Source: a bacterium
GTDB lineage: Bacteria; Babelota; Babeliae; Babelales; JAUWHS01
Length of the DNA stretch: 54,614 bases
Reading direction: 5' to 3'
Assembly (NCBI GenBank): GCA_043818275.1
Contig: JBDRFY010000069.1
Location: 1-54,614 of the forward strand
The position numbers and the translations under genes are program-made. Below, piece by piece: positions 5,705 to 25,608 of the stretch; position 1 is the first letter of the stretch; the number at the start of each line of letters is the position of its first letter. Under the pieces are notes generated by a model. It saw only the letters and a list, made by a program, of their open reading frames with translations. It was not told where the DNA came from and searched no databases.

Positions 5705-8700
5705 ATGGAAATAAGAAAAAACATTCTATATGTACTCACAACATTTCTGATATTAAGCAATTTTTTATCTGTTCAATCTCTGGATATTGGAGAATATGAA
5801 GAAGGAGCGTTAAAAAAAGCCTCAATCAAACGCAAAGCCGTAACACCAACACCAGATATTCTTTCTTATGGCAGCATCTTAAGATTTAAAAACGAAAATA
5901 CTGCAACATTTATAGGTCTTGAAGGAAGTTCTGTTGGTGGAAAAGAAGACTCAACACTTGATACATACTGGTATATTTATCCTGAAAACATAGAAGATAA
6001 AGATCTTAAAAATAAATATGCAATTAAAAACGGCGCGACAGTAAGAATTGTAAACGTTGTAACCAATAAAGAGCTTGAAGGACACACATGGATCCTTGAA
6101 GCAATAGGATCAATCGAATATTATCTAAAAAAAGATAATAGGCTTGTTTTTAAAAATCCTGATGATGGAACATATTTAACGGGATCATTAGATATTTCAG
6201 GAAATACATCTTTATATAAATTAACAACACAGACAAAATTAAGCGGTTATAGTTATTGGTCAATAGCTGATTTTTATCCATCATATCTTGAAAGTGATTT
6301 TAAATCTGGTGATATAGTTGCAATTAAATGCTTATTTAATGACAAATTTTTAACGTTTTTTCAAGATAGGATAGAAGTAATATCAGTTAGAAACTTTCCT
6401 AACCCTCCTGATAAAATTTTCTTTCAAAATCTCGCATCTCCAATGCGAGACAATACAGACAATGATGAATCAAAGTTTCAATTCGTTAGAGAAAAAGGGT
6501 CTATAGGATTTAAATCTTTAGCCCCTACAGGTAAAGATCATTTCATACGAGCAAACAATACAAAAGACGTCGGACACGATAGAGCATTTATGCAAGGACA
6601 AAAAGAATATTTCTACAATCGTGGACTCGTACAAATATGGAGTAAAACTCTTGGTGAATGGGAACGATTTAAACCAGAACACTTTCACATAAAAGGATTA
6701 GGCTCCAATGGATATTTAGCATACTTATATACAATATCAAAATATTTAGAATCGCTTGGAAACAGGGGTAGAAGCGTCACAAGGAACGATTCTCCTATAC
6801 ATAATGGTATAGAAACAGATGCAGTTATTCTAAGCACATATGATAATGTTTATTTTTCAGAGGGAAAACCAAATAAAAAAACACCAAAAGGTTTATTCGC
6901 TATTATTAAAATATCTGGTGACCCAATAATGCCAATAATTCCCGAAGAAGAAATAATTGAAGGACCAATTGAAGAACCTGAAATTAAACTAGAAAAAGCT
7001 TTAATGGGAAAATATGAAAATTGGAAAGAAATAACACAACAGGGACTTGCTGATGTAATTTTTGAAGCAAAGGCTCTGGATAATATAATGATAGGTCTTG
7101 CTCCTGAAGCCAAAGATTATAAAAAAGATGAAAAAATATACGAAGTTGTAATTGGAGGCGGTGTTGGTAATGAAGCCAATACTTATTCATTAATAAGAAA
7201 TACTCATATGGGAAAAGCATCTGATCCAAAAATTGGTACATATAAAATGGGCAAAGATATACCAAATAAGGACTGGAATTCGTATTGGGTAAGGATCATT
7301 GATCAAAAAATCTCTTTTGGTAGCGGTAGAACTCCGGGTGAAAATATGATACTTGAATGGACTGATCCAACAGAACCTGGAATTCTTGTTAAATATATAG
7401 GTTTAAGTAATTATAAAGATCCTGTTTATTTTAAAAACATTGAATACTTAACTCCTGAAGTTGAAGAAGAAGTTAAAGCAGAATTTTTTACGGACAAATT
7501 AAAAAACGCCAGAAGCATTAAAATATTTAAAGATATGATTGATAAATATATTTCTTTAATTCCTGAAGCTGGCGAATCAGAAAGTAAAACAAAAGTCTTT
7601 TTTGATGAGATCATATGGTTAAGTCAAAATACACCAAAAGGAAAAGAAGTAGAACTTCAACGTTTAGTCGAAAGTGTTCGCTGGAATCCTAAACTTGTTC
7701 GACCAACAACAGAAAATATCATTAATTACTTGACCATTGAGGCTGGAACTCCTATGTCATTTGACAAAAAGATTGCAACATTTGAAGGATTAATCAATCA
7801 AGCGTATACAGATGAACAAGTCAAAGCATTTTTAACAGATAATCGTGAAGATATTGTTTCACTGTTAAAAATTTTGGCAGAAGAAGGAATAGAATCTTCA
7901 CCTGCAAATATGAAACGCGTACAAGGGGTTATAGAAACTCTGGTTTATGATCCAATATTTGCAGATTACGTAACACTTCTTGAATCAATTGCTTCTGAAT
8001 TAACAAAACCAATCACAGTTGAAACCTTACTGGAAAGAATTGCTTCAGAAAGTGCGACAGCTGATGAGCCAACAGAAATAAGATTTATAAAAACAACAAC
8101 TAACTTATTGCAAAAAGAATTTGGACCCTTGATCGAGGAAGTAAAAACAGGAGCAATATCCGAAGAATCAAAACAAAAAATAATTAATCTGGAAAAACTT
8201 CTTAACTCCATTATATATGGCATAGAATTTGAAGGTCTTCACAAAAATATTGCAAAAGAATGGCTTGCAAGATTACCAAAAACAACTGCCGGACTAATCA
8301 TCGTAGAAACTCCAGGAGAAAGTGCCACCAACGAAGAAAAGGTTAACTATTTAATCGCTGCTACAACAAATGAGACATTAAAATCTGCAGAAAAGAAAAA
8401 AATCTTTTTTGAGATTATAAGTCAGTTAGTTAAAGATAAAAATCTTCCCGCCGATTTAATAGAAAAAGTTAGAACCGTTTTGGGAATAATCAAATGGCAT
8501 CCTGATGTAAATGATCAGGAAGACGCGTTAGTAAAATATTATGAAACCCAAATTTCCATTCCTGTTACAATTGATGATCAAATTAATGATCTATTAAATC
8601 GTATTTTGACAATAACAGATGAAGCCGGCAAAAAAACATTCCTGACAAAAGTTGATAAAGTAATTGAGGCAACAGAAAAAGATATTAATGAAAGTAAAAA

Positions 8701-8986
8701 GGTCACAAGTCTACCTAAACTTCAAACTCTTTTAAAAACAATGCTAAGCTTGCCAAATTTTGTCTCTGATAAAGACGCAATTAATGCAAAGCTTACAAAG
8801 GTTGCTGAATTAATTCAAAGGAACGCTGGCGTGACAACAGCAACAACAACGACTCAAGCCACAACAACTACGCCTCAAAGAACAACACCTTCAACAAGAA
8901 TAACAACTGTTCCTCAAACAACAATAAGAGGAAGAGCTATAATACCAACAAGACCATCAGTAGCAACATCTATGCCTGCGGCATAA
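5705..8986 (+). CDS. Large exported modular protein: MIR/beta-trefoil-like domains, FAMeT-like (Methyltransf_FA-like) domain, helical repeats, Thr/Arg-rich tail
   Basis: AAGGAG RBS; signal peptide; YGSILRFKN and GDIVAIKCL trefoil-like starts; YEVVIGG...SLIR...YWV...EWTDP...VKYIGLS pattern at ~7040-7450; helical C-terminal half. Confidence 0.7.
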   Translation: MEIRKNILYVLTTFLILSNFLSVQSLDIGEYEEGALKKASIKRKAVTPTPDILSYGSILRFKNENTATFIGLEGSSVGGKEDSTLDTYWYIYPENIEDKDLKNKYAIKNGATVRIVNVVTNKELEGHTWILEAIGSIEYYLKKDNRLVFKNPDDGTYLTGSLDISGNTSLYKLTTQTKLSGYSYWSIADFYPSYLESDFKSGDIVAIKCLFNDKFLTFFQDRIEVISVRNFPNPPDKIFFQNLASPMRDNTDNDESKFQFVREKGSIGFKSLAPTGKDHFIRANNTKDVGHDRAFMQGQKEYFYNRGLVQIWSKTLGEWERFKPEHFHIKGLGSNGYLAYLYTISKYLESLGNRGRSVTRNDSPIHNGIETDAVILSTYDNVYFSEGKPNKKTPKGLFAIIKISGDPIMPIIPEEEIIEGPIEEPEIKLEKALMGKYENWKEITQQGLADVIFEAKALDNIMIGLAPEAKDYKKDEKIYEVVIGGGVGNEANTYSLIRNTHMGKASDPKIGTYKMGKDIPNKDWNSYWVRIIDQKISFGSGRTPGENMILEWTDPTEPGILVKYIGLSNYKDPVYFKNIEYLTPEVEEEVKAEFFTDKLKNARSIKIFKDMIDKYISLIPEAGESESKTKVFFDEIIWLSQNTPKGKEVELQRLVESVRWNPKLVRPTTENIINYLTIEAGTPMSFDKKIATFEGLINQAYTDEQVKAFLTDNREDIVSLLKILAEEGIESSPANMKRVQGVIETLVYDPIFADYVTLLESIASELTKPITVETLLERIASESATADEPTEIRFIKTTTNLLQKEFGPLIEEVKTGAISEESKQKIINLEKLLNSIIYGIEFEGLHKNIAKEWLARLPKTTAGLIIVETPGESATNEEKVNYLIAATTNETLKSAEKKKIFFEIISQLVKDKNLPADLIEKVRTVLGIIKWHPDVNDQEDALVKYYETQISIPVTIDDQINDLLNRILTITDEAGKKTFLTKVDKVIEATEKDINESKKVTSLPKLQTLLKTMLSLPNFVSDKDAINAKLTKVAELIQRNAGVTTATTTTQATTTTPQRTTPSTRITTVPQTTIRGRAIIPTRPSVATSMPAA

Positions 8987-9019
8987 TTTAAAATAAATTT
9001 AATTATATGGAGAATAGTT

Positions 9020-10465
9020 ATGAATAAAAAAATAAGTAAATTAATGATTTTAGGATTACTCATATTTACAACAATCAATATTTATTCATTTTCGTTTTTT
9101 GACCTTGTCGGAATCACTAGTACTGAACCAACTTTTCAGGATTCTTTGGATAAAATTCAGGCTGTAGGAGAGTTGCAGGATTTAATAACGAAAGCCCTGG
9201 AATCCCAGCAAAACCTAACCGCATTTACAAAAAAGCTCGAAGATTTTGTAAATGAAAGAGAAGAATTTGAATTAGATACAATCAAAAAAGTAATAAATTA
9301 TATTTTATATAATCCGGAAATATCCAAATATCCAGCTACTCAAAAAATCTTAACAGAATTAGGAACGCGCGCGGCCAAACCGATGACTACTATGGAAATA
9401 TTACAAGTTATGCAACAAATGGCTTCTGACCCACAAAAAATACTTTTATTAAAAGAAAATCCTGAAAAAACTATGCGTAGTCTGGTCTTGTTTGTATCAG
9501 AACGAAATGATGAAACAAAAAATAAATTAACTGATTTATTAAATTCCATAAAAGTTCGTAAGATTTTTACGGATCCGGGATATACAGAACAACTTGATGA
9601 ATTAATAGCGCTTATCCCACAAACTGTCTCGCTTTATGAAAAAATATATACACTGTATTTAAAATTAAGAAAAATTGATTCAACAGAAGCTATAAATACA
9701 TTATTAACTCTTATGTCTGAATACAGAAAAGCAACAGCCGAAGAAAAAAATAAGGTCTTGGATAAATTAGAATTATTATTAAATTCAATTATTTATAGTC
9801 CTAAATTTTCTATTACCCAACAACAACAAGCTTTAACATTATTAAATGAAGTTAAAAAAGAAGAAGTTTCAGGCAAAGAACCTACTAAATATTCTGAGAA
9901 AATAGATTTTTACTACAAAAAGGCACTGAATGATTTAACATCACCAGAAAATAAATCTAATCTTTTGGCTGGTCTGGCAACTTTATCTAAAGAAAAAATG
10001 AAGGCTGCTGGAAACGATCTTCAAATTCTTTTGTCAATTTTAAAATTTTTGCAACAATCTCCTTATTTTACTGAAATGGAAAAAATCCAATTAGCTCAAT
10101 TTATTATAGATATTGAAGCAGAAGTTTCTGTGTCAGATTTAATAGGCAAAATTTATAGTTTACTCGGAGCAGCCCAAACAGACACAGCAACAAGAGATTA
10201 CATTGTAAAATTAGTTGAAAAGGCGGTTAACAGTCTAATTGAACAAATTAAAAAAGATAAAAAAATTCCCGCGGAAAATGAAACTCTTAAAAATTTACTT
10301 ACCCTTTACATTCTCGAATCACCAACATACGCAGCAAAAAAAGCTGATATAGAAAAGCTACAAAATAATTTAAATACAGAAATCGCTGCAATTTCTCAAC
10401 CTGCAGCTCAAACAGCAGCAACAACAACAATATCAACTGATATAAGAGGACGATTAAGAAGATAA
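9020..10465 (+). CDS. Exported all-helical repeat protein, paralogous to the C-terminal half of 5705..8986
   Basis: GGAG RBS; signal peptide; LELLLNSIIYSPKF matches LEKLLNSIIYGIEF in the upstream protein; tail TTTISTDIRGRLRR. Confidence 0.7.
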   Translation: MNKKISKLMILGLLIFTTINIYSFSFFDLVGITSTEPTFQDSLDKIQAVGELQDLITKALESQQNLTAFTKKLEDFVNEREEFELDTIKKVINYILYNPEISKYPATQKILTELGTRAAKPMTTMEILQVMQQMASDPQKILLLKENPEKTMRSLVLFVSERNDETKNKLTDLLNSIKVRKIFTDPGYTEQLDELIALIPQTVSLYEKIYTLYLKLRKIDSTEAINTLLTLMSEYRKATAEEKNKVLDKLELLLNSIIYSPKFSITQQQQALTLLNEVKKEEVSGKEPTKYSEKIDFYYKKALNDLTSPENKSNLLAGLATLSKEKMKAAGNDLQILLSILKFLQQSPYFTEMEKIQLAQFIIDIEAEVSVSDLIGKIYSLLGAAQTDTATRDYIVKLVEKAVNSLIEQIKKDKKIPAENETLKNLLTLYILESPTYAAKKADIEKLQNNLNTEIAAISQPAAQTAATTTISTDIRGRLRR

Positions 10466-10474
10466 GGAACACAA

Positions 10475-11257
10475 ATGAATCTCAAACATCGGTTTTATTT
10501 TTTCAGCTTAATTATTCTTATATCTTTTTTTGAAATTCAAACAAGTGAGATAAATCTAAATCCGGAAGGAGGCGCCTTAACAGGCGCCTCTTTTCAAAAA
10601 GATGAAACAACAGACCAAACAAGTTTAGAAAAATCAGAAGAAATTTTGGTAAAAAAAGATTCATCAATTGAACAAAGCAAAACAATTGAAGAAATTAAAA
10701 CTGAAAAAATTAATTTGGAAAAAAACATTGAAACTTTAAATCAAAAATTAAAAAACCGTATATTCGATAAAGAATTTATTGAAATTGTAAAAACAACAAT
10801 TGAACAAAAAGTAAAATTAAATTCCGAACAGGAAAAAAAATTAATCACAATCATAATGGAAGCAAGATCAAGAAGTATTGGGGACACAAAAAAAGAATTA
10901 CAAAAAATACTTGAAGATTTATATAGACCGCCCCAAAAAAAAACATCTATTAAAAAGGAAGAACAGGAAAAAGAAAAAACAACAATTGAACAATTAAAAG
11001 AAAAAATAGAAAAAAATCCAAACATCTCTGCTGATGAAAAAACTGAAATTATTAATCTTATAAAAAAACTTGAATCAGAAATAAAAAAGAGCAACGTAAC
11101 ACAACGCATGCAAATACCTGAACAAAGAATTCAGACAACAAGAAGAAGTGAAGGTAAAAGAGTTGATCCATTTACCGTAGAAGATACTTCAAAAAGAAAA
11201 ACTCAAATACTAAAAACTTCAACTAAAGGAAGAAAAGAAACTGTTATAAAAAGATAA
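10475..11257 (+). CDS. Exported Lys/Glu-rich coiled-coil hypothetical protein
   Basis: AAGGA RBS overlapping the upstream stop; hydrophobic N-terminus; heptad-rich body. Confidence 0.65.
   Translation: MNLKHRFYFFSLIILISFFEIQTSEINLNPEGGALTGASFQKDETTDQTSLEKSEEILVKKDSSIEQSKTIEEIKTEKINLEKNIETLNQKLKNRIFDKEFIEIVKTTIEQKVKLNSEQEKKLITIIMEARSRSIGDTKKELQKILEDLYRPPQKKTSIKKEEQEKEKTTIEQLKEKIEKNPNISADEKTEIINLIKKLESEIKKSNVTQRMQIPEQRIQTTRRSEGKRVDPFTVEDTSKRKTQILKTSTKGRKETVIKR
10564..10595 (+). terminator. Intragenic GC-rich hairpin resembling an intrinsic terminator
   Basis: GAGGCGCCT-TAAC-AGGCGCCTC followed by TTTT, inside the 10475 ORF. Confidence 0.4.
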
Positions 11258-11286: not shown

Positions 11287-13668
11287 ATGAAAATATTAAA
11301 TTTTTTATCCAAAGGATTATTTATCTGCCTGGCAACGTTTCTATCCAATTCTCCGACAAATGCTTTAACGTATCAGGATGTTCAAAATGCTTTAAATGGT
11401 TCTCAAACAGCTGTAAATAACATTATTAATTTTCAAAATCCTGTAACACAGGCAATGGGTATATCAATACCGAAACCTAATTTTATTGCAGAATTTACAA
11501 ACACAAAAAGAAGGCTTGAAGACACAATAAATTTAATTCTTGCATATAATCAAACAACTCTTAATTCTTCAGCTGTATCAAATTTAATAACTGAAGCTCA
11601 AACTTCTGCAAATAATGCTAACCCTAGTAATTCAGCAAATAATTATGGTCGCGATTTTCTTGTAAACGCGCAAGCTAAATTAACATCAGCTTTTAATTTA
11701 TTAAACACACAACAGTCACAACCACAACCACAAGTTCAACTAGTAACGACAATTCCTGATGGCAGTTATATTAAATTAAAAAATATTAAAACAGGCAGAT
11801 ACTTAACAACTAATCCTTATTCCGGAAATAATCCGGCAATTGGACTAACCCTTGAAAACACAACCAACCCAGAAACTCAAACATACTTAGTTAAAGGCTC
11901 AAATGGAAACTATCAATTAGTTGGAACAGCTGGAAGCCAAAGAGGGGCTTTATTTGTTAGTCCACAAAGCGCTTACTTTGACCACACGGAAAATTGGGAT
12001 AATAGTACTACAATGCAAATATACAAACAAGTAAATAGCAATATATATTACTTAACAAATCCATCTCTTAACGGAAAATACATAGGTATAAGTGATAAAA
12101 TAAGTTTCCCAAGAGATTTAAATTTATTTGATGAAAATGCAAAATGGGAAATAATTCAAGTCACTGTGCAACCACAGCCTCAACCAACAATGCCATTTAA
12201 TGATGGTGATCTTGTAACAATTAAAAGTTATGATAATCAATACTTGCAAATGCCTACTCAATTACCATCAGTAGGCTATTATCAAGCTCAATTTACAAAT
12301 AAAACAAATCAACCTAATCAAGTATTTAAAATAAAAAAATATACAAATAATTACTATGCTTTAATTGGCACTAAAACTGGAGAATATACTGGAGCTAATT
12401 CAGGATTCCTCGGTGCATACAGCCCTTATTCAAGTAGATTCGAAATTAAAGATACGCCTGGCGAAAACAATTATTTCTTATTATATAACAAAGGTGATTA
12501 TAGCTTCGCTATTAAAAACACCAAATATAATAAGTTTGAAGAAAAATCTGGACCTTTTTTAAAGGATACTGATGCAACATTTAATAATCTTCCAGCTTCA
12601 GCTATTTTTACAATCGAAAAATATACAGCTCCAACCATACAACCACAGCCACAACCAGAACCGCTACCAAATCCAACAATGCCATTTAATGATGGTGATC
12701 TGATTACAATAAAAAATTTAAATGGAATTTATTATCAAATGAGCGATAATAATCAAGGTCAATTTTATTACAATACATTCAAATCCCCCAACCAAGTTTT
12801 ACGAATAAAAGTAAATCCTAATAACAGTTATTCATTCATAGGAACAGTAAATGAAAAATCTGGAATGTTAAAAAGTGACCCAAGCTATGCTAGATTTACT
12901 CTCAACCAACAGATAGCTAATCCAGAAAACTCTTTTACTCTTTTTAGTAAAGGAGACAATTCTTTTGCTATCTATAATATCGGCTCTAATAAATTTGAAA
13001 ATCAAGATAGTTGGGCTTTAAAGGATACCGCTCAACCATTTAATACCCTTCCTGCTTCAGCAATTTTTACAATTGAAAAATATACGCCACAACCAGAACC
13101 ACAGCCACAACCAGAACCACAGCCACAACCAGAACCACAACCAGAACCACAGCCACAACCAGAACCACAGCCACAACCAGAACCACAGCCACAACCAGAA
13201 CCACAGCCACAACCAGAACCACAGCCACAGCCAGACGAGAAAGCAAAACAAATAGCCGATCTTCAAAATCTATTAATTCAAAAACAAACAGAACTAAGTC
13301 AAACTTCTCCAGTAAACAGAATAAAAAGGTCTCAACTTAACAGCGAAATCACAAACATTCAAAATCAGATAAACTCTCTTCAGGGAACAACAACTACTCC
13401 TTCAACAACAACTCCAACACAAGTTGTAACTCAACCAACAACTGTTGTAACTCCAAGAGGAGGTGTAACTCCCCGGGTTTATCAACGGCCTGGCGGAACC
13501 AAAGTAAGTCCATCCTCAGCTTTTGGCAGAACAGCTGCAACAGGAAGAAGTACTGCTCAACCGACATATCCAACAACAAGAACAGGTCAAGCAGTACTCC
13601 AAACAAGTACAACAGCGACAGGAAGAGGCGGTTACCAGGCAACAACTCAAACTTCACAACGATGGTAA
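11287..13668 (+). CDS. Exported protein: helical N-domain, three beta-trefoil-like domains, PQPE linker, Thr/Arg/Gly tail
   Basis: GAGGAG RBS; signal peptide; DGSYIKLKNIKTGRYLT and twice MPFNDGDL.TIK...LPASAIFTIEKYT. Confidence 0.7.
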   Translation: MKILNFLSKGLFICLATFLSNSPTNALTYQDVQNALNGSQTAVNNIINFQNPVTQAMGISIPKPNFIAEFTNTKRRLEDTINLILAYNQTTLNSSAVSNLITEAQTSANNANPSNSANNYGRDFLVNAQAKLTSAFNLLNTQQSQPQPQVQLVTTIPDGSYIKLKNIKTGRYLTTNPYSGNNPAIGLTLENTTNPETQTYLVKGSNGNYQLVGTAGSQRGALFVSPQSAYFDHTENWDNSTTMQIYKQVNSNIYYLTNPSLNGKYIGISDKISFPRDLNLFDENAKWEIIQVTVQPQPQPTMPFNDGDLVTIKSYDNQYLQMPTQLPSVGYYQAQFTNKTNQPNQVFKIKKYTNNYYALIGTKTGEYTGANSGFLGAYSPYSSRFEIKDTPGENNYFLLYNKGDYSFAIKNTKYNKFEEKSGPFLKDTDATFNNLPASAIFTIEKYTAPTIQPQPQPEPLPNPTMPFNDGDLITIKNLNGIYYQMSDNNQGQFYYNTFKSPNQVLRIKVNPNNSYSFIGTVNEKSGMLKSDPSYARFTLNQQIANPENSFTLFSKGDNSFAIYNIGSNKFENQDSWALKDTAQPFNTLPASAIFTIEKYTPQPEPQPQPEPQPQPEPQPEPQPQPEPQPQPEPQPQPEPQPQPEPQPQPDEKAKQIADLQNLLIQKQTELSQTSPVNRIKRSQLNSEITNIQNQINSLQGTTTTPSTTTPTQVVTQPTTVVTPRGGVTPRVYQRPGGTKVSPSSAFGRTAATGRSTAQPTYPTTRTGQAVLQTSTTATGRGGYQATTQTSQRW
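13087..13233 (+). repeat. Coding minisatellite, 18-bp unit CCACAACCAGAACCACAG (PQPEPQ)
   Basis: Seven identical full units, one 12-bp unit (13123-13134) and a partial final unit. Confidence 0.97.
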
Positions 13669-13872: not shown

Positions 13873-14664
13873 ATGAAGGTTTTATGTAATTTTTTAATTT
13901 TAACATCATTATTTTTTAATTTAACTTTTGCGCAAAATTCCAATCAGGCATCTGAAGAAATTTTAAACCCTGGATTTATCAAAATTAAGGCAGCTAACAA
14001 TAAATATGTATCAATTAAAAATAGCCCAAATAATTATAGTTTTGACTTATCTTTAGAAGATTTTTCAACCAACAGCGAACCAAGACAAACTTTTTTCATT
14101 GTTCAAAAAGAAGGAAACCCAATAATTTTTGGGTCTTTAAATCCAAAAGATTACACCTTTCATTCAGAATTAGATCTTTTGGGTAACAGCAAAAATTTAG
14201 GTCAAGGATTTCTAAGCCCTTACAGAAATGGCAGTTTTCAAACAAAGTATTACAACGATTTTTCAGCAAACGTAATTAAAACATTTAAAATTACTGGATC
14301 AACCAATAAATATTTAATAACAAACGTCAATGAATTTAATTCAAAAAAAGAAAATAGTTTTTTTGGTATTGACGCAAATGGAAACTTTACAATTGGATTG
14401 AATAAAAATGATCCTAATGCCCAATTTGAAATAGAACAAGCAACCATACCGGTTAATTTAGAAAAACAAGTTCAGCCAACAAAAAAAGTTGTTCAGCTGG
14501 AATCAAAAAAATTAACCCCGGCAGAACAAAAAAGACCAAAATTAGCTCAATCCACATTAAGAACTCCGCTCGAAAAAAAAGATGAAGGTTATACAGGAAG
14601 AGTTTATAGAAGACCTTCCGGACCATCTGTCACGGGAGGAGGAAGAATCGTTACAAATTTTTAA
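13873..14664 (+). CDS. Exported single beta-trefoil-like domain protein with Arg/Gly tail
   Basis: AAGGAG RBS; signal peptide ending TFA; GFIKIKAANNKYVS...NAQFEIEQ resembles trefoil units of its neighbours. Confidence 0.65.
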   Translation: MKVLCNFLILTSLFFNLTFAQNSNQASEEILNPGFIKIKAANNKYVSIKNSPNNYSFDLSLEDFSTNSEPRQTFFIVQKEGNPIIFGSLNPKDYTFHSELDLLGNSKNLGQGFLSPYRNGSFQTKYYNDFSANVIKTFKITGSTNKYLITNVNEFNSKKENSFFGIDANGNFTIGLNKNDPNAQFEIEQATIPVNLEKQVQPTKKVVQLESKKLTPAEQKRPKLAQSTLRTPLEKKDEGYTGRVYRRPSGPSVTGGGRIVTNF

Positions 14665-17700: not shown

Positions 17701-18646
17701 TATTTGGGGCCTAGGGCAAGATAACAAAGCTTATATGTGGAATGGTTCTGAATGGATTGATAAATCAATAGGAATGAAATTTAATTATATTTCTGTTGGA
17801 ATAGATGGAACAGTTATGGCCCTTGATTCAACAAATAAGCTTGCAAGTTGGACAGGTTCAAACTGGACAATTTCACCATTCAAAGTTCATCAGGTAAGTG
17901 TTACAAATAAAGACAAACATTGGGCGATAACAAAAGAAGAAGATGGCAGTTTCAATGTTTATAAATTTGTTGATAACGGATATGTTTTAAGAGCCAAAAA
18001 TTTACAACAAGTATCAGCGAATCTTGAAGGAACTTTATTTGGAATAAGTACTTTAAAAATATCTGGTGGATTTAAAATTTACGCAAGAATCATAAAACTT
18101 TACGGCAAAATTCTTGATAAATTAAACAACGCAAAAGAAAAAACAACAGTAAAAGAAAAAATCGAAGAAATAAATAAAGCGATTGACCTGGCAGTTGCCG
18201 AAAAAGTTGCTGCGGAATTAACATCTGATGAATTAAGCGCTCTTAAATTAGAAACATACACGGAACTATACAATATTTTATCAAAACAATTAGAAGCAGC
18301 AAAAACAGAAAATGTACTTAAGGAACTTAAAAATCTTGTAACTAAGGCGGGAGCTTCTGTTTTAATCGCGGATAATATTAAACCATTGTTAATTAGTTAT
18401 GCTGAAACAAAAATTATACTTGAAGAACCTAAACCAGAAACACCCGCAACCGCAACAACAGCAACCGCGGCAGATAGAAGAAGAATAACAACAACCACTT
18501 ACACCCCACGGGGAAGAGCCGTAGGTCCTTCACAACAAACAACAACAAGAGGAGGAACTGTTATTCCCGTACAACAAACAGCAGTTCCAGCAGCAACAAC
18601 AGGCGGCTCAACAACTCAAGACATAATTGCTAAAAAAACTCTATAA
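14795..18646 (+). CDS. Large exported modular protein: helical N-domain, beta-trefoils, FAMeT-like domain, tectonin-like propeller, helical domain, Thr/Arg tail
   Basis: AAGGAG RBS; signal peptide; tectonin-like blades PGGLTQVSVG, YKHVSVGDD, MKQIEIGSKDYIWGL, YISVGIDGTVMAL; GNGFITFQVK...FWITI. Confidence 0.72.
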   Translation: MKSWNFLSKILFICFATLLFNTTKAVTYDEVKKTLDYAESKVNEILRHTKPTTEVKFTPIKELNMDFVNLYNITKQALNNTGNLINSYNIETNNNANVTFKVNEAKNLLNSAGAKKDGGDHNHGRDWLVNALNKLKEAFNLLQEQTISGEGEVGPLKNYSLVTIKVNNKYLSADIISDTPQIKLVDKLQAPYQGNNNQIFIIRKSGEYVAFQSMKDFINDGNFLEFNINNEAKLLNQGFDSGKFFRLNAVSGKTNTYYIFSYPRQTYVMQTGETIKTGYAQSDIGNKVSAQFEIKEFTLDDPAAKTILNPTFYRPDLVTIRNVGQNKYLSGSYNEAGYGGNINQSRALQLVDKPIPLTSVFKIAKSDQDLTKQDPNYRDWFDKPGYETWFSFIATYRLGFSGGQRGLMDIADEGYFNLTVATNAYRNFELSRVPNTEKEYYIIKNQFHNKYLRVSGGKLLADQNDAGSAMADQHCWFEIAEFKMEPNLYILNKETENFKFPSAGNGFITFQVKTPNRLELTFLDNNNNTIGKIVFSKNEISGEFQTTSFRVRQDNIFDSDSTKFSPFWITISNQTLITGKGDTAGQNTLNLETEGNVKQASLKIPALTNIVAVKFAGDPNTFLFKPSVTQPTVTIDIPPKPGEGETIVKLESGYYKIKNVETNTYMTIKDSNLDADIYNTNGKPWVIYSLRFENPINNATQIFKIEETDGWHKIIGSLDATYQLPNSGIIDTGLGTAYFNKQFDFSTYRKIKITQKAGVLGSFITSEKDANSKYGVEANKLMKDKANPRFIFEKVMVPDATTIEPIAELKVEKYDLDINEVPGGLTQVSVGGNLICGINSSNRLYKWDNAKNTWTLFSDANYKHVSVGDDNIVLTLGTDNKIYTRKDDKWLLFGKGILPTTPTITTQTETANSTPSGELPVPGSLPAPTTLPTPPSTPTLPVIGPDGIAYFATAQAIQMKQIEIGSKDYIWGLGQDNKAYMWNGSEWIDKSIGMKFNYISVGIDGTVMALDSTNKLASWTGSNWTISPFKVHQVSVTNKDKHWAITKEEDGSFNVYKFVDNGYVLRAKNLQQVSANLEGTLFGISTLKISGGFKIYARIIKLYGKILDKLNNAKEKTTVKEKIEEINKAIDLAVAEKVAAELTSDELSALKLETYTELYNILSKQLEAAKTENVLKELKNLVTKAGASVLIADNIKPLLISYAETKIILEEPKPETPATATTATAADRRRITTTTYTPRGRAVGPSQQTTTRGGTVIPVQQTAVPAATTGGSTTQDIIAKKTL

Positions 18647-18657
18647 TTAATTAAAAG

Positions 18658-18704: not shown

Positions 18705-18773
18705 AAATCATTGCATTAAAAACTCTTTTTTTTTAAAAATAATTTAATCAGGAAATAAAAAACTAATCTTTGA

Positions 18774-19108
18774 CTTTGTTTATCAATTTAATAATTATTT
18801 TGACAAGCCCTGTTAAGGGCGGCATTTGTTAGCCCAGGGTAAGAAAATTCTTGTCCGCCGAAGTACCGCTATTTGCGGTACGAAGGTGGATAATTTTCGC
18901 AACCCTGGGAAAAAGATTAAAATAAAAATTTAGCCCCGTAGGGGCGGCACATAAAATTATTTGTTTGTTTTTTATGTGCCGCCCCTACGGGGCTAGAATG
19001 TGATTATAATTTATACCCAGAGCTGTAACGCTACGCGTTTTGCACTGGGCTAATAAATGTCGCCCTTAACAGGGCTTGTCAAAGTAATTATTAAGTTGAC
19101 ATACAAAG
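18774..19108. mobile_element. REPIN/MITE-like non-coding nested palindromic element
   Basis: 64-bp terminal inverted repeats (18774-18837 / 19045-19108, 58/64 Watson-Crick); perfect 26-bp inner IR (18931-18956 / 18970-18995); mini-hairpins GCCCTGTTAAGGGC and GCCCCGTAGGGGC. Confidence 0.75.
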
Positions 19109-19177
19109 ACTAACGTTGAAAATTTAAAATTTAAGATCAAAACTTAACGCTTCGGACAGTTATGAAACAAGTTCCAA

Positions 19178-19207
19178 CCTTAGTACCGCAAATAACAGCA
19201 CTTCGGC
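19178..19207 (-). repeat. Inverted degenerate copy of the hairpin module at 18857-18886
   Basis: Reverse complement GCCGAAGTGCTGTTATTTGCGGTACTAAGG vs GCCGAAGTACCGCTATTTGCGGTACGAAGG (26/30). Confidence 0.8.
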
Positions 19208-19253
19208 CAACAGGCAAAATGACAATATGGTAAAAAATATAAAAGGAGAGAGA

Positions 19254-21803
19254 ATGAAAAAAAATCTTATAGTTTTATTAACACTTTTTACAATCAACAT
19301 TTGTAACGCCATAGACATCAACATACCAATCATAGATAAAAAAATAACACCATTTGAAGGTTTTGAACCTGGTGAAGTTTTAAAATTTGCTGGTAGACTT
19401 ACAGATAAAACAATTAATGCGATTAAAGAAAAAGTAACAGAAGCTACCAACAAACTTCAATTTTGGAAAGAAGAAGTCAAAAAGCAAGAAAAAAGTGTTC
19501 CTATAAATGTCCCTTATAATTATGAAGAACTTTTATCGGTAGATAATCAGGATTTCTTTACACAAATTTTTGGAACAGCAAAACAAATATCTGTCGGAAA
19601 AAATAAAGATAAAATGTCTGTCTGGATTATCGGAACAGAAGGTATTCCTTACGAATATAATCCTTCCAATAAAATACATAATCTTTCATGGATAAAGCAA
19701 ATAAAAAACTCGGGTATAACAAAAATTGCTGTTGCTGAAGACGGAACTCTTGCCGGAATAGATTCAAATGGGAATATAGCAATATATAAAAATAATAAAT
19801 GGGAACCAACAAAAACAACAAAAAATGGCATAGCAACCAAAATGACTGCGGAGGCAGCTGAAAATTTCAAAGCTGTTGATGTTGATATTGCAAATGAAAA
19901 AGAAATTGTTTATTTAAACGAAAATGGAGACATTTACAAATCTGATGATGGGGGAATGAATTGGAAATCATTGCCATCACTAAAAAATGAAGAAAAATTC
20001 CAGAATGTTTCCATGGGAGCTGATGGAACAATTTTTGCCTGCGCGGATAATTTAGCCGCTTATCATTTTGATGAACAAAAATGGATAGCATTTCCTAATA
20101 AAATTAAAAAAATTGCAGCCGGAAGCAAAACCAACCTGGTTGGAATTTCAAAAGACAACCAGTTATTAATCTTTGACGCAAGCGAAAATAAATGGATGCT
20201 GCAAAAAAATTTAATCTCTGATGCCGCAAAAAAAGGCAAAACAATCGAAGTTATAGATATCGCAACGAACAGTTCCGGAAACATCTGGGCAATAACAAAT
20301 AAAAATGAAATCATAACTAACATCGCAGCAAATACAAATGACGCTTTACAAAAATTAAAATCAGGAAAAGTCATAACAATAAATAGTTTAAGCGAAAATA
20401 AATTTTTAAGAGTTGAAAACAAAGAAAGAAATTATTTAAAACCTACAGCAACAGACCCGGAAGATCCAAACACTTTATTTACAATAATTCGTTCCGGACA
20501 ATATTTTGGACTTCAATATAAAAATCAGTTTGTTACATGTGATCCAAACGAAGGCCTTGGAGAATTTAAAGGCTCAATTAAATTATCGCCTAATTTTTCA
20601 TCCGGAGAAAAATGGCTGCTTTCTGGTGAATTAGAACAATCAACAATTACAAGTTATGCAAACAAAAAAAATCTAACATTTATTGATTTGGAAACAATTT
20701 TAAAAGAAATTAAAAAAATTCAAATGGAAGCTATAGAAAAACAACATACAGAAGCTCAAATAGCTGCTGCTGCCGGAACTTCCGGTCTTGGAACAGCCGC
20801 GGCAGGTGTTACAACTGCAGCAGGAGCTGGAATTGGCGCTGTTGTTGCTGGCGTAATTATGGCAGTTATGGGAACAGTTGTTCCTGGCGCCGGGAACATT
20901 AGTGGAGCCCTGATTGGACTCGCTATTGGAGGTGCAATAGGAGGAACTTTTGGAGGTATGCTTGGCTTCTCAATGGCCACTTCTGGATTTGCTGCAAATG
21001 CTGTTATTGCAACAGCCATTGAATTTCAGCATCAAAGATCTGCTGCAGATGTGGAAGATTTGGCAAGTCCTGTTTTAAACAATCCGGGATTATTGGGCAA
21101 AATTGTTATGGCATACTTTTTAGCAACTGAAAAAAGCGATCAGGAATTTTTACCGACCTTATTCGATATAGAAATTCAAACAAAAAAACAAAAAGAGATG
21201 CTGGCAACAGACGAAAAAGATTTTAAGCAAGATTATCAATTTGAAGTTCCCGGAAACGGATTTATCAAATTTAAATTAACCGGCAGCCCTTTAAATTTCT
21301 GGCTATGGGATGAAGACAAAAAGGAAATAATTTTGCCTGGAATAATTGGCGGACAAAATAATACAACAATTTCAATTGGAACCCCAACCGGCTGGCAACC
21401 AATTGTAAAAAAATATGAAATAATAAAACCAAATACTCCAAATTCATTCTGGATTGAAATTAAGGACAATAAATTAATAATTGGGTCAGGAGATTTAATC
21501 GGTTCGAATAAAATTGGCGAAAGTGAAACAATAGAAGATCTCTCAAAAGTTAAATATGTCACATTTAGTAAACTTCCAACCTCTGATGTGGAAATTTCAG
21601 AAGTTAATTTTTACAGTAAATTATTAAGCGAAGAAAAACCAATTGAAAAAATTGAAATCACAGAAAAAGAAAGAGCTGAACAACCTAAATTTATTTCTCC
21701 AGCGCCAAAACTTATTTCTCCTGCTCCAACAAAAAAAGAAGAAACAAAACCTGAAAAAATTATTGTAACAGAAGAAGAGGAAGAAGCTTACGGCGGGATT
21801 TAA
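19254..21803 (+). CDS. Exported tectonin-like/beta-trefoil/FAMeT-like protein with glycine-zipper hydrophobic insert (paralog A)
   Basis: ATG 19254 after AAGGAG matches the paralog start; blades KQISVG, TKIAVAEDG, QNVSMGADG, KKIAAGS; Gly/Ala segment ~20755-21020; ends EEAYGGI. Confidence 0.75.
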   Translation: MKKNLIVLLTLFTINICNAIDINIPIIDKKITPFEGFEPGEVLKFAGRLTDKTINAIKEKVTEATNKLQFWKEEVKKQEKSVPINVPYNYEELLSVDNQDFFTQIFGTAKQISVGKNKDKMSVWIIGTEGIPYEYNPSNKIHNLSWIKQIKNSGITKIAVAEDGTLAGIDSNGNIAIYKNNKWEPTKTTKNGIATKMTAEAAENFKAVDVDIANEKEIVYLNENGDIYKSDDGGMNWKSLPSLKNEEKFQNVSMGADGTIFACADNLAAYHFDEQKWIAFPNKIKKIAAGSKTNLVGISKDNQLLIFDASENKWMLQKNLISDAAKKGKTIEVIDIATNSSGNIWAITNKNEIITNIAANTNDALQKLKSGKVITINSLSENKFLRVENKERNYLKPTATDPEDPNTLFTIIRSGQYFGLQYKNQFVTCDPNEGLGEFKGSIKLSPNFSSGEKWLLSGELEQSTITSYANKKNLTFIDLETILKEIKKIQMEAIEKQHTEAQIAAAAGTSGLGTAAAGVTTAAGAGIGAVVAGVIMAVMGTVVPGAGNISGALIGLAIGGAIGGTFGGMLGFSMATSGFAANAVIATAIEFQHQRSAADVEDLASPVLNNPGLLGKIVMAYFLATEKSDQEFLPTLFDIEIQTKKQKEMLATDEKDFKQDYQFEVPGNGFIKFKLTGSPLNFWLWDEDKKEIILPGIIGGQNNTTISIGTPTGWQPIVKKYEIIKPNTPNSFWIEIKDNKLIIGSGDLIGSNKIGESETIEDLSKVKYVTFSKLPTSDVEISEVNFYSKLLSEEKPIEKIEITEKERAEQPKFISPAPKLISPAPTKKEETKPEKIIVTEEEEEAYGGI

Positions 21804-21824
21804 AATAATTAATATTATAACGGT

Positions 21825-21859
21825 ATGGCGTCAGGGAATTACCTTGACGCCATTTTTTT
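21825..21859 (+). terminator. Intrinsic terminator
   Basis: ATGGCGTCAGGG-AATTA-CCTTGACGCCAT followed by a T run. Confidence 0.85.
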
Positions 21860-21933: not shown

Positions 21934-24306
21934 ATGAAAAAAAATCTTATAATTTTGCTAACACTTTTTACAATCAACATTTCTAACGCAATAGATATCA
22001 AAATACCAATCATAGACAAACCGGTAACAATTGCTGAAGACTTTCAACCCGGAGAAGCTTTAAAATTTTCAGGAAGACTTACAGACAAAACAATTAACGC
22101 AATAAAAGAACAAGTAACAGAAGCTACCGACAAACTTCAATTCTGGAAAGAAGAAATCAAAAAACAGGAAAAAAGTGTTCCTATAAATGTCCCTTATAAT
22201 TATGAAGAACTTTTATCGGTAGATAATCAGGATTTTTTCACACAAATTTTTGGAACTGCAAAACAAATATCTGTTGGAAAGAATAAAGATAAAATGTCTG
22301 TATGGATTATTGGAACAGAAGGTATTCCTTACGAATACAATCCTTCAAATAAAACGCATAACCTTTCATGGATAAAACAAATTAAAAATTCGGGAATAAC
22401 AAAAATTGCCGCAGCTGAAGATGGAACGCTTGCTGGAATTGATTTAAATGGAAATATTGTAATATCAAAAAATGACAAATGGATTCCAACCAAAACAACC
22501 AAAAATGGAATAGCCATGAAAGTGACAGCTCAAGAAGGTGAAAATTTTAAAGCTGTTGATGTTGATATTGCAAATGAAAAAGAAATTGTTTATTTAAATC
22601 AAAATGGAGATATTTATAAATCTGATGATAGCGGAAACAATTGGAAGATATTACCGTCTGAACCTTCTATAAAAAAAGATGAAAAATTTCAAAATGTTTC
22701 AATAGGAGCAGATGGAACAATTGTCGCGTGCACAGATAAACTTTCAGCTTATTATCTTTATGGCCAAAGATGGATGAATTTTCAAGTTAAAATAAAAAAA
22801 ATTGCCGCTGGAAGCAAAACAAATCTGGTTGGAATTTCTAAAGATAATCAGTTATTAATTTTTGACGCAAATAAAAATAACTGGATGCTGCAAAAAAACT
22901 TAATCGCTGATACCGCAAAAAAAGGAAAACCAATTGAAGTCATCGATGTCGCAACAAACAGTTCCGGAAACATCTGGGCAATAACAAATGATAATAAAAT
23001 AATATCCAACATCGCGGCGAATACAAATGAAGCTTTGCAAAAATTAAAATCGGGAAAAATTGTAACAATAAATAGTTTATGTGAAAACAAATTTTTAAGA
23101 GTTGAAAACAAAGAAGGAAATTATTTAAAACCTACAGCAACCGATCCGGAAGATCCGAACGCATTATTTACAATAATTCGCTCAGGACAATATTTTGGTC
23201 TTCAACAAAGCAACCAATTTATTTCATGTGATCCAAATGAAGGAGTTGGAGAATTTAAAGGCTCGATTAAATTATCGCCAAATTTTTTGGCAAATGAAAA
23301 ATGGCTGATTTCAGAAAAATTAGAACAATCAACAATTACAAGTTACGTAAATAAAAAAAATCTGGCTACCGTTCAATTAGAAAAAATAGTTCTTATATTA
23401 AAAGAAGAACAAATGAAACAGATACAAAAACATCACGATTCCTGGCATGGAATGGCACAAATAATAAGATATGTTCTTCCACTTGACCTACCAACAGCTA
23501 TTGCGGCAGCATTTGCTGTAGCTACAGTAGTTGAATTTCAAAGACAAAGAACTGTGGCAGAACTTGAAGATTATACAAATCCTGTATTACAAAATCCTGG
23601 TCTCTTGGGACCAATGATTGCAATGGCTTATTTACCCCCAATATTTAAAGGAGATGAAGAAGATCTAACCGCTCTATTTGATATAGAAATTCAGACAAAA
23701 AAACAAAAAGAAATATTAGCTACAGATGAAAAAGATTTTAGAAATGATTATCAATTTGATATTCCCGGGCAAGGATTTATCAAATTTAAAGTAACAGGCA
23801 ACCCTTTAAATTTCTGGCTATGGGATGAAGACAAAAAGGAAATAATTTTGCCTGGAATAATTGGCGGACAAAATAATACAACAATTTCAATTGGAACTCC
23901 TACCGGTTGGCAACCAATTTTTAAACAAGATGAAATAGTAAAACCAAATACTCCAAATTCATTCTGGATCGAAATTAAGGACAATAAATTAATAATTGGG
24001 TCCGGAGATTTGATAGGATTAAATAAAATTGGCGAAAGTGAAAAAATAGAAGATCTTTCAAAAGTTAAATATGTCACATTCAGTAAATTGCCTACTTCAG
24101 ATGTTGAAATTTCAGAAGTAAATTTCTATAGCAAATTATTAACTCCCCGATTAACCGAACCCATAGCAACAATTCAACCTGTGCCAACAAAAAGAATAAC
24201 ACCTGCGCCAACCAAAGTTATTTCACCAACACCACAAAAAGAACAACCTAAAATCCAACCAAAAAAAATAACAGAAGAAGAGAAAGAAGCTTACGGCGGA
24301 ATTTAA
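21934..24306 (+). CDS. Tandem paralog B of 19254..21803 with an alternative central segment
   Basis: Long identical stretches (e.g. KKQEKSVPINVPYNYEELLSVDNQDFFTQIFGTAKQISVG); different shorter centre; ends EAYGGI. Confidence 0.75.
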   Translation: MKKNLIILLTLFTINISNAIDIKIPIIDKPVTIAEDFQPGEALKFSGRLTDKTINAIKEQVTEATDKLQFWKEEIKKQEKSVPINVPYNYEELLSVDNQDFFTQIFGTAKQISVGKNKDKMSVWIIGTEGIPYEYNPSNKTHNLSWIKQIKNSGITKIAAAEDGTLAGIDLNGNIVISKNDKWIPTKTTKNGIAMKVTAQEGENFKAVDVDIANEKEIVYLNQNGDIYKSDDSGNNWKILPSEPSIKKDEKFQNVSIGADGTIVACTDKLSAYYLYGQRWMNFQVKIKKIAAGSKTNLVGISKDNQLLIFDANKNNWMLQKNLIADTAKKGKPIEVIDVATNSSGNIWAITNDNKIISNIAANTNEALQKLKSGKIVTINSLCENKFLRVENKEGNYLKPTATDPEDPNALFTIIRSGQYFGLQQSNQFISCDPNEGVGEFKGSIKLSPNFLANEKWLISEKLEQSTITSYVNKKNLATVQLEKIVLILKEEQMKQIQKHHDSWHGMAQIIRYVLPLDLPTAIAAAFAVATVVEFQRQRTVAELEDYTNPVLQNPGLLGPMIAMAYLPPIFKGDEEDLTALFDIEIQTKKQKEILATDEKDFRNDYQFDIPGQGFIKFKVTGNPLNFWLWDEDKKEIILPGIIGGQNNTTISIGTPTGWQPIFKQDEIVKPNTPNSFWIEIKDNKLIIGSGDLIGLNKIGESEKIEDLSKVKYVTFSKLPTSDVEISEVNFYSKLLTPRLTEPIATIQPVPTKRITPAPTKVISPTPQKEQPKIQPKKITEEEKEAYGGI

Positions 24307-24318
24307 AAAGGAGGAAAA

Positions 24319-25608
24319 ATGAAATCAAATAAAATTTTATTATTCTTTTTATTTATCTTTTCTCAAATACTGACCGCTCAATTCAATCAAATTCCCGGAA
24401 CATTGCAAAAAATCACTGTTGGAAAAGAAAATAATCAGCTTGCGGTTTATGGAATTCATCCAAACAATACAATTTTTAAATACACACCAGGCATTACCCC
24501 TCCATGGACGGGATTTCAAAATCCTTTTTCATTAAATCAGATCGATTTGGGAAACGATGGTTTTTTGATGGGCGCAAATTTAGCGGAATCCAAAAACATT
24601 TATAAATTTGACGCGACAACAAATCAATGGATTCAGACAAATTTAACCGCGTTTCAAATTGTTGTTAACAATAACAACCTAATAATCGCTCTTGCCAAAA
24701 ATTATCTGGTTTTTGAATCAAATGATGGCGGAAACAGCGCTTATCCAATTTCTTCAGACACATTTAAAACTGTAACGGCAAGTAAAAAACCACAGGAAAG
24801 ATTAATTTTGGCAATTAATAAAAATGACAATAAAATTTACAAACATCAGGGCGGAAAAATTTGGACTATTTTTTCAAATTCAACAAATATTACAAAAATA
24901 GCAATTGGCAACGCGCAAAATATTTGGGGAATCGATTCGCAAAACAAACTGGTTAAATGGAACAATTCTACCTGGATTAGACAAGAAGAACCGCCGTTAA
25001 ATTTCATCCCGCCAATTATAGATATTTCTGTTAATTCTGATGGCGTTTTATTTTTAACAACCGACAGCGGAGAAATTTTCGCAAATATTGAAACTCAACC
25101 AATTTCACCTCAAACCAATCCTCAACAACCAATACAACAACCAACGCAACAACAAATACCTCAACAAACACAAACAACAATTCAACAGCTATCTTTAAAT
25201 CAATTTAATATTTTTAAACAACAGATTGAAACGAATCTTAAAAATCTGGAAAATCAAATTAAAGAAAATGGTGAAAAAGATCAATTAAGAGAAAAGCAAA
25301 TTGGTTATTTAAATCAACAACTCAAAGAACTGCAAAGTAAAATCGTAACATTACAAGAAGAAATCAAACAAGCCACAACTCAATCAACAATTATTCAACC
25401 ACAGATTTCACAACAAAATTTAACTGCTTCTCCACCAATTCAGGCAATTCCGGTTCAAACAACAATTCAGCAACCAGCAACAGTCCCAACTCAAATACAA
25501 TCTCAATTAACAATACAACAACCAACACAACAAACTTTTTCAACACAAAGATCAAGAACTACATCAACAGCGCCAACAAACAGCGCGGTAAGTTTTAGAA
25601 GAAGATAA
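24319..25608 (+). CDS. Exported tectonin-like propeller plus coiled coil with Gln/Thr/Arg tail
   Basis: AGGAGG RBS; signal peptide; IPGTLQKITVG, TKIAIGNAQNIWGID, DISVNSDG blades; ends SFRRR. Confidence 0.7.
   Translation: MKSNKILLFFLFIFSQILTAQFNQIPGTLQKITVGKENNQLAVYGIHPNNTIFKYTPGITPPWTGFQNPFSLNQIDLGNDGFLMGANLAESKNIYKFDATTNQWIQTNLTAFQIVVNNNNLIIALAKNYLVFESNDGGNSAYPISSDTFKTVTASKKPQERLILAINKNDNKIYKHQGGKIWTIFSNSTNITKIAIGNAQNIWGIDSQNKLVKWNNSTWIRQEEPPLNFIPPIIDISVNSDGVLFLTTDSGEIFANIETQPISPQTNPQQPIQQPTQQQIPQQTQTTIQQLSLNQFNIFKQQIETNLKNLENQIKENGEKDQLREKQIGYLNQQLKELQSKIVTLQEEIKQATTQSTIIQPQISQQNLTASPPIQAIPVQTTIQQPATVPTQIQSQLTIQQPTQQTFSTQRSRTTSTAPTNSAVSFRRR

Follow-up and report, generated by a model that had tools for sequence, protein, structure and literature searches.

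Ten genes of a Babeliales bacterium (Dependentiae/TM6), nine of them in a single array, are the subject of this analysis. The window, a complete contig of 54,614 nucleotides (C69), carries nine plus-strand open reading frames (ORFs) of 260-1283 amino acids (aa) between positions 5705 and 25608, named A1 to A9, and a tenth, A10, at 46374-50186 on the same strand. By sequence comparison, they appear to form an island of genes for exported proteins that is peculiar to this lineage, diverges rapidly and is syntenic in one congener. Each product appears to begin with a Sec-type signal peptide, after which come non-catalytic binding modules in an assortment that differs from protein to protein (a Tectonin beta-propeller, trefoil-like units of the ricin/fascin clan, a beta-sandwich of concanavalin A (ConA)/galectin fold, and helical repeats), and most would finish with a spacer of low sequence complexity followed by a basic tail. 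The reading favored here, to which we give about an even chance of being correct, is that these are Sec-exported, multivalent lectin-like proteins that act at the bacterium-host interface, most likely as surface adhesins.

Modules of the array proteins

The original prediction, made from the letters of the sequence, had described nine co-oriented genes and a tenth member, signal-peptide-like N-termini throughout, and no recognizable enzyme, and all of these elements hold. Chance reading frames were rejected as an explanation, given the length of the ORFs, the presence of orthologues in the congener (G001), and the profile matches described below. The genes are closely spaced in places, with gaps of 9-33 bases along A1-A2-A3-A4 and between A8 and A9, while terminator-like hairpins lie 3' of A6 and of A7. 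Each of the ten proteins opens with one to five basic residues, then a hydrophobic stretch, and all ten (nine of nine in the array, and A10) pass a crude in-house hydrophobicity rule, used here in place of SignalP, at a threshold of 1.7, against a background of 31-34% of 1182 crude ORFs of the genome. A stricter form of the rule retains seven of the nine array ORFs, the exceptions being A4, which scores 1.7, and A7, which possesses an additional internal hydrophobic segment. With regard to enzymes, no family reaches its cut-off for any of the ten proteins in Pfam or NCBIfam other than the misleadingly named PF12248, and NCBIfam yields low-complexity or far sub-threshold matches only.

The longest co-oriented run of signal-peptide ORFs in the source genome (G000) comprises nine genes, and the array shares this rank with C73:17148-24638, runs of 8, 7 and 7 being present elsewhere; a run of at least nine was obtained in 8 of 2000 label shuffles. 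The clustering of exported-protein genes is real, yet it is a genome-wide trait, and since such runs are common across the genome, the sharing of modules is stronger evidence for a family than the signal peptides are. The run of eight at G000:C50:10620-23254 is itself a paralogue family, one member of which matches Tectonin with 34 bits.

Tectonin (PF19193, cut-off 30 bits) is, as predicted, found above the cut-off in five of the ten proteins, A6 to A10 (47.3-105.9 bits; Table 1), with no match to this family in A1-A5; BLASTP ties the Tectonin regions of A7, A8, and A9 to each other (A9 versus A7, E 2e-12). The prediction of a FAMeT-like domain is likewise borne out by PF12248 (Methyltransf_FA, cut-off 24.2 bits), which reaches 45.4 bits in A1 and remains below the cut-off in A7 (21.1 bits) and A8 (19.1 bits) in the protein hmmscan, A7 attaining 24.9 bits in a six-frame search of the genome. 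A6 has no Pfam match to this family, and BLASTP ties the FAMeT-like units of A1, A6, A7, and A8.

The fold of this domain was modeled with AlphaFold 2 (AF2) from a 50-row alignment of copies from the window, G001 and other Babeliales. For A1 aa ~425-585 the model is an all-beta sandwich with a predicted local distance difference test (pLDDT) score of 83-96. A comparison by VIA-align with 48,161 chains returned as top match the carbohydrate-binding module CBM66 4b1m (Z 13.8, root-mean-square deviation 3.1, 141 aligned residues), with a galectin-like Bacillus protein at Z 13.4, and the best 50 matches listed are all of ConA-like, galectin, legume-lectin or CBM type (Z 9.7-13.8, ~125-155 aligned residues), with no methyltransferase among them. 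Foldseek places galectins at the top (E ~1e-5, template modeling (TM) score by target 0.5-0.67). Sequence identity to the structural matches is 5-18%, and the galectin family PF00337 gives no match at E <= 0.1 in any of the ten proteins. The model thus assigns the FAMeT-like domain to the ConA/galectin-type beta-sandwiches, lectin-like in fold alone. The candidate use of PF12248 as an enzyme or methyltransferase marker was rejected on the strength of this all-beta model and the absence of methyltransferases from the best 50 VIA matches. By titles and abstract starts, supplements aside, the literature on PF12248/Methyltransf_FA deals with animals, wheat BTB genes and a GABA-receptor predictor, none of it bacterial.

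The beta-trefoil calls of the original prediction fared less evenly. RicinB_lectin_2 (PF14200, cut-off 25.6 bits) is exceeded in A6 only, whereas A4 stays below it (17-19.5 bits), and neither PF14200 nor PF00652 matches A5, A7, A8, A1, or A10; in a survey of 41 genomes, PF14200 gave no match above the cut-off, and matches at E <= 0.001 in 3 of 41. A profile made without A5 recovered it at E 1e-8. Atlas comparisons, to be taken as leads only, place A5 near RicinB_lectin_2 clusters (feature score 0.90, TM 0.52) and the middle domain of A7 (aa 366-502) near ricin, Fascin, and FRG1 clusters (0.89-0.90, TM 0.53-0.58), in both cases with low-confidence Atlas models. The MIR-like calls for the first domains of A1 and A10 are not established: the MIR cut-off (PF02815, 25.6 bits) is not reached by A10 aa 70-290 (14.1 bits, E 0.044) and A1 aa 40-440 gives no match. 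Structure prediction, which was successful for the FAMeT-like domain, gave no usable model for this part of A1 (AF2 without an alignment gave pLDDT 30 for aa 40-440; d1 and d2 were both below 50, d2 also in the model that resolved the FAMeT-like domain). The trefoil-like units appear to be highly divergent, and their identity as trefoils is only partly supported.

Additional links connect the proteins in pairs. The helical region of A1 (aa 595-1016) is homologous to that of A2 (aa 39-429; BLASTP E 2e-9), in keeping with the predicted helical repeats, A2 itself falling into no family of Pfam or NCBIfam; A4 and A6 share 40% of residues over their first 150 aa by BLASTP; and A7 and A8 are a tandem duplicate with 81% aa identity, the nucleotide identity being 85% over 1455 nucleotides and 79% in a second block, with a center that is not alignable. 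In that region A8 contains a shorter, unrelated segment in place of the Gly-rich one of A7. From shallow alignments, hhalign links A1 d2 to the A7/A8 middle domain (probability 93%), the A4 units to A5+A6c (probability 72%, E 3.5e-5), and A1 d1 to the N-terminal domain of A10 (probability 69%), remaining pairs being below 30%. The proposal that a few modules are reused in different orders therefore stands by BLASTP, Pfam, and hhalign, but does not extend to A3, which has only its signal peptide and basic tail in common with the other array proteins and shares no globular module with them.

Low-complexity tails had also been proposed, and net-basic tails rich in T, S, P or Q are found in 5 of 934 ORFs of at least 150 aa, four of which are A1, A4, A9, and A10; A7 and A8, however, end in an acidic run followed by YGGI (24292-24303 in A8). 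The same ending, at the very C-terminus, is present in two G001 proteins (locus L021, G001:C116), and a six-frame search of G000 gives two matches, A7 and A8. YGGI formally fits the eukaryotic YxxPhi sorting motif. The (P-Q/P-E)n spacer of A4 resembles TonB and procyclin rods in composition only. The true start of A7 is probably 19254, since the Atlas record begins at residue 10 of the ORF, a methionine, matching the A8 start.

Table 1. Coordinates of the ten ORFs, their modules and associated elements in the window
Feature	Position	Strand	Remarks
A1	5705..8986	+	1093 aa; signal peptide first, helical repeats 7487-8752, T-rich basic tail 8822-8983
A1 beta domains	d1 5837-6304; d2 6302-6769	+	hhalign links to A10 and A7/A8
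A1 FAMeT-like domain, ConA/galectin fold (AF2 model)	7037-7441	+	PF12248 45.4 bits
A2	9020..10465	+	481 aa; signal peptide, then helical repeats (9134-10306) with homology to the C-terminal half of A1; tail short and basic
A3	10475..11257	+	260 aa; signal peptide, charged coiled-coil-like, basic tail
A4	11287..13668	+	793 aa; signal peptide and A6-like N-terminal helical domain 11287-11736; coiled coil; T/R-rich tail
A4 trefoil-like units, three in tandem	11734-13077	+	RicinB_lectin_2 17-19.5 bits, under cut-off
A4 (P-Q/P-E)n spacer	13084-13239	+	Trypan_PARP and TonB model matches far under cut-off
A5	13873..14664	+	263 aa; signal peptide, single trefoil-like unit 13954-14457, basic tail; no Pfam match
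A6	14795..18646	+	1283 aa; signal peptide and A4-like N-terminal domain, helical region, T-rich tail
A6 trefoil-like units	15248-15694, 15707-16285, 16727-17194	+	RicinB_lectin_2 28.4 bits in A6
A6 FAMeT-like unit	16283-16714 (aa 497-639)	+	BLASTP link to A8 only, E 4e-5
A6 Tectonin region with T/P-rich insert	17258-18049	+	Pfam 70.3 bits
A7	19227..21803	+	858 aa; signal peptide, acidic tail ending YGGI (21789-21800)
A7 Tectonin region	19557-20447	+	Pfam 57.1 bits
A7 trefoil-clan-like middle domain	20328-20726	+	Atlas part search, neighbors 0.89-0.90
A7 Gly/Ala-rich hydrophobic segment	20772-21062	+	glycine-zipper-like matches, sub-threshold
A7 FAMeT-like domain	21231-21575	+	PF12248 21.1 bits, under cut-off
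Terminator-like hairpin 3' of A7	21825-21853
A8	21934..24306	+	790 aa; tandem paralogue of A7; Tectonin 22237-23103 (47.3 bits), middle domain 23017-23415, FAMeT-like 23743-24132
A9	24319..25608	+	429 aa; signal peptide, Tectonin region 24376-25089 (55.7 bits), Q/P-rich spacer, coiled coil, T-rich basic tail
A10	46374..50186	+	1270 aa; signal peptide, helical region, T/Q-rich basic tail
A10 beta domains	MIR-like 46596-47228; second 48957-49478	+	MIR only E 0.044
A10 long Tectonin/Hyd_WA region	47271-48953	+	Tectonin 105.9 bits, Hyd_WA 99.9 bits

Relatives, genomic setting and known counterparts

The locus is syntenic in G001, where FtsH, TolB, a TolA-like protein, TolR, and TolQ are followed by A1 and A2, while A9 lies on another G001 contig together with an A7-like gene and a short one resembling A6. 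Identity to G001 is 37% for A1 (37-38% for its orthologue), 45% for A2, 34-35% for A7/A8, 30% for A6, 50% for A9 and 57% for A10, compared with 79% for FtsH, 67% for TolB and 82% for TolQ among the housekeeping neighbors. Among the relatives searched, full-length A1 was found in G001 only. For the globular part of A4 there is no homologue in 40 relatives, G001 giving no match at all, and eleven other relatives match only the proline-rich spacer of the A4 query (aa ~573-705).

Among 5.8 billion proteins, full-length A6 retrieved only itself in a word-based search, and A10 has two full-length relatives besides itself (58% and 40%). In 1.84 billion representatives, A7 had 150 HMMER matches listed, three of them at E <= 1e-30: A8, the protein of G001 and one from a metagenome, the latter two also combining Tectonin with PF12248. 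Beyond the genus, A7 first matches a eukaryotic transcript, P0005 (E 7e-24), with bacterial multidomain proteins close behind. A search of genome contigs gave no confirmed locus for A10, and three distant loci for FtsH, none of which belongs to the phylum. The A10 homologue with 40% identity (P0275) and an FtsH with 80% (P0155) probably come from the same related genome, A10 diverging much faster. An unrelated protein of 834 aa, P0276, joins Tectonin/Hyd_WA to a true galectin domain.

Individual modules are more widely distributed. Within the order, the survey of related genomes envisaged by the original prediction detects Tectonin in 9 of 41 genomes and PF12248 in 30 of 121, the latter confined to six of 21 families (1/1, 4/10, 2/3, 9/10, 7/7, and 6/6), with neither family present in any of 14 control genomes. 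Across the order, the two domains often occur in the same signal-peptide-bearing ORFs of 1200-1900 aa, and many relatives possess adjacent pairs of ORFs of this size, with three PF12248 copies each and, in some, an N-terminal Tectonin; these paired ORFs mostly have a hydrophobic N-terminal segment and low-complexity tails, and PF12248 scores in Babeliales ORFs rise to 98 bits. The source genome has such an exported pair, of 957 and 925 aa with three copies each, at G000:C64:41353-47135 (L025 5354-11135). An exported calcineurin-like phosphoesterase is encoded 3' of this pair, whose arrangement is also present in G001, G012, G017, G030, and G034.

The source genome spans 1.33 Mb in 92 contigs, is 94% complete, and has ~30% GC. 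The organism is placed in the Babeliales (Dependentiae/TM6) by the sequence neighbors of its FtsH: among the 120 homologues listed, all seven with an organism name belong to Dependentiae, Babeliales, or TM6 (66-71% identity). Cultured members of the Babeliales are obligate intracellular parasites of protists. The Dependentiae-type FtsH and the five intact TLC nucleotide transporters of the genome are consistent with a protist host, and protists are reported as hosts of the phylum (PMC12172432). A sixth TLC frame (G000:C37:11825-12949), which contains eight stop codons and adjoins intact copies, is probably a pseudogene. Chromulinavorax destructans is reported to have Sec as its proposed sole export route, signal peptides in 44% of its coding sequences, and an ORFan-rich secretome (PMC6561590).

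Elsewhere in the window, a second co-oriented run (28217-34633) comprises five ORFs with signal-peptide-like starts and no match above any Pfam cut-off, PknG_TPR in B3 and DUF4485 in B5 being sub-threshold; it includes a 494-aa protein with an outer-membrane-protein-like C-terminus, a 985-aa helical protein, and an exported protein (33097-33975) whose N-terminal poly-proline tract and IQ-type motif near the C-terminus are eukaryote-like short motifs. The 580-base intergenic stretch between A6 and A7 (18647-19226) holds a terminator-like, A/T-flanked palindrome of 47 bases (18658-18704) and two copies, in opposite orientation, of a 14-base GC-rich hairpin (18807-18820, 19062-19075). On the minus strand, a 468-aa ORF (40302-41708) fuses trmD (tRNA m1G methyltransferase) to a Methyltrn_RNA_4 S-adenosylmethionine-dependent RNA methyltransferase domain. 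An Rfam scan of the window detected two tRNAs and nothing else, and a sigma-70 scan found 69 sites against 81.6 in shuffles, fewer than by chance, so that no promoters were called.

The modules have counterparts in known proteins. Tectonins are exemplified by those of Physarum, by Limulus tachylectin-1, and by Laccaria Tectonin 2. The human hTectonin is reported to bind lipopolysaccharide (PMC2707011). Like Tectonin/TECPR lectins (PF19193, PF06462), A6-A10 score above the cut-off, A10 matching Hyd_WA in addition, and like many bacterial Tectonin proteins they carry the domain within long, multidomain exported chains. Their scores of 47-106 bits, however, contrast with 341-583 bits for seven typical Tectonin proteins (P0005-P0011), and its partners in the array (trefoil-like units, FAMeT-like sandwich, Gly-rich segment) differ from those in the seven. 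PF12248 is above the cut-off in A1 and many Babeliales ORFs, as it is in arthropod FAMeT and CPAMD8-/TEP-type proteins; unlike in the animal FAMeT-type proteins, in Babeliales it lies in bacterial signal-peptide proteins, often in three copies. With galectins and ConA-like domains (CBM66 4b1m, YesU-like 1oq1, legume-lectin-like) the fold is shared, but not a Pfam galectin match or a sequence identity beyond the range given above. Ricin-type lectins (PF14200, PF00652; lectin subunits of toxins, CBM13) are resembled in the A6 score, the Atlas neighbors of A5 and A7 and the tandem units, whereas the array units differ from them in motif content, in the sub-threshold score of A4, and in failing to recover each other, A5 apart. 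The Chromulinavorax secretome is similar in its large share of signal peptides, its richness in ORFans and its supposed action on the host, but the word "lectin" is absent from that paper, which names proteases, nucleases and ankyrin-repeat proteins (PMC6561590). Titles and abstract starts in the literature yielded nothing joining Dependentiae with tectonins, or with lectins in their proteins, although supplements might list such domains. While the domains are known, novelty lies in this architecture, in the way it has expanded within some of the Babeliales, and in the assignment of the fold.

Proposed adhesins and alternative explanations

If the array proteins are adhesins, they would, once exported by Sec, be retained at, or shed from, the bacterial surface as multivalent lectin-like molecules, the C-terminal spacer and tail being cell-proximal and the N-terminal modules extending towards glycoconjugates of the host surface or of the phagosome membrane. 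Contact with these glycoconjugates would lead to attachment and favor uptake, and gene duplication, module shuffling, and rapid divergence could permit the tracking of host surface variation. We infer that the signal peptides are cleaved, that the proteins cross the outer membrane and stay at the surface, that they bind glycans, and that the host is their target, the step to the host interface being drawn from the lectin-type folds together with the known biology of Dependentiae.

A number of observations weigh against this reading. Signal peptides are so frequent in this genome that export says little about host targeting and is weak evidence for it. No outer-membrane anchor or secretion signal was found in the ten proteins in Pfam at E <= 0.1 or NCBIfam at E <= 0.01, among models that include the autotransporter barrel, the C-terminal domain of type IX secretion, and sortase/exosortase tags, although short signals can escape profiles. 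The QxW motif, which is expected in the three subdomains of ricin-type trefoil lectins, has no match in 12 of 13 candidate segments and a single one in A1 d2; leave-one-protein-out profiles recovered only A5, missing A4, A6, and A7/A8, so that a single trefoil family is not established by sequence; and a nine-unit trefoil profile found nothing significant among PDB sequences (best E 0.028 for 8bbl, next a designed trefoil with E 0.15). With the motif nearly absent, the profiles largely failing and no significant PDB match, sugar binding cannot be read from the sequence, and proteins or lipids are further ligands of beta-propellers, trefoils, and ConA-like sandwiches. Low identity to G001 is not unique to the array either, since the TolA-like protein and TolR are low as well (39-42%). 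A search of sequencing runs found no RNA run with the locus, and five DNA runs with small shares (0.05-0.16). Finally, the internal hydrophobic Gly-rich segment of A7 is easier to reconcile with insertion of this protein into a membrane than with the role of a simple adhesin.

This segment, with ~95 aa rich in Gly and Ala and weak glycine-zipper matches, also speaks for a different role, in which the proteins would be released as soluble or vesicle-borne effectors or toxins in the host phagosome or cytosol, A7 inserting into membranes and the lectin-like modules serving in targeting. We consider this unlikely, though it is the foremost of the alternatives. The combination of a trefoil lectin with a membrane-acting module is a known toxin design, and the YxxPhi-like end is unique to A7 and A8 in the genome; secreted effectors and outer-membrane vesicles have been proposed in Chromulinavorax (PMC6561590). 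Yet A8, for all its similarity to A7, lacks the Gly-rich segment, the proteins that match glycine-zipper models score below the Pfam cut-off, and neither Pfam nor NCBIfam contains a match to a family of toxins, proteases, pore formers, or other enzymes; nor did a secretion system dedicated to effectors turn up, no search having been aimed at one. In G000 as in G001, the array starts beside a divergent tolQ-tolR-tolA-like-tolB operon, a position that evokes instead envelope or coat components that bind the bacterium's own glycans or each other, for instance in a surface layer or in the change between infectious and replicative forms, and that lack a direct ligand on the host. Structural surface proteins typically contain helical repeats, coiled coils and low-complexity spacers, and an anionic envelope could serve as a ligand for the basic tails. 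This is quite unlikely in our estimation: a core envelope part should be widespread, while the array proteins do not reach beyond a genus or a few families of the order (A1 in G001 only, A4 in 0 of 40 relatives), its divergence is faster than that of FtsH, TolB, and TolQ, and shuffling with recent duplication would rather fit an interface under diversifying pressure.

Very unlikely, in turn, is a role as protein- or lipid-binding scaffolds, such as TECPR- or fascin-type mimics that disturb membrane traffic or the cytoskeleton of the host. The repeats of A10 match the TECPR-type Hyd_WA model, the A7 middle domain lies near the Fascin and FRG1 Atlas clusters, the trefoil-like units are devoid of QxW in all but one segment, and the neighboring exported protein at 33097-33975 has the poly-proline and IQ-type motifs described above; but cytosolic host targets would require the crossing of two or three membranes by a route that is not known, carbohydrate-binding domains head the structural matches of the FAMeT-like domain, and the Atlas scores are leads only. 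A more elaborate version of the adhesin reading, which we would regard as a long shot, is that several Babeliales families build a "lectin toolkit", with Tectonin propellers of eukaryotic type joined to the galectin-fold sandwich and to trefoil-like units, as a self-made opsonin coat that would bridge to host glycans or phagocytic receptors and trigger uptake, A7-type proteins then inserting into the phagosome membrane through the Gly-rich segment and showing the YxxPhi-like end to the sorting machinery.

Significance for the biology of Dependentiae

Dependentiae are widespread parasites of protists, and to our knowledge no entry factor is known for the phylum, nor has a Dependentiae adhesin, invasin, or effector been characterized. 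The locus described here, together with its relatives in six of 21 families, provides concrete candidates in the form of exported proteins with predicted lectin-type folds. In addition, dozens of large proteins in Babeliales have so far gone under a misleading name, which is corrected by the model-based placing of their "FAMeT" domain among binding folds of ConA/galectin-like type. Should the lectin-toolkit proposal be true, it would represent a new host-entry strategy for the phylum; and if the array proteins do bind host glycans, their rapid divergence and module shuffling would make these genes host-range markers in an uncultured phylum.

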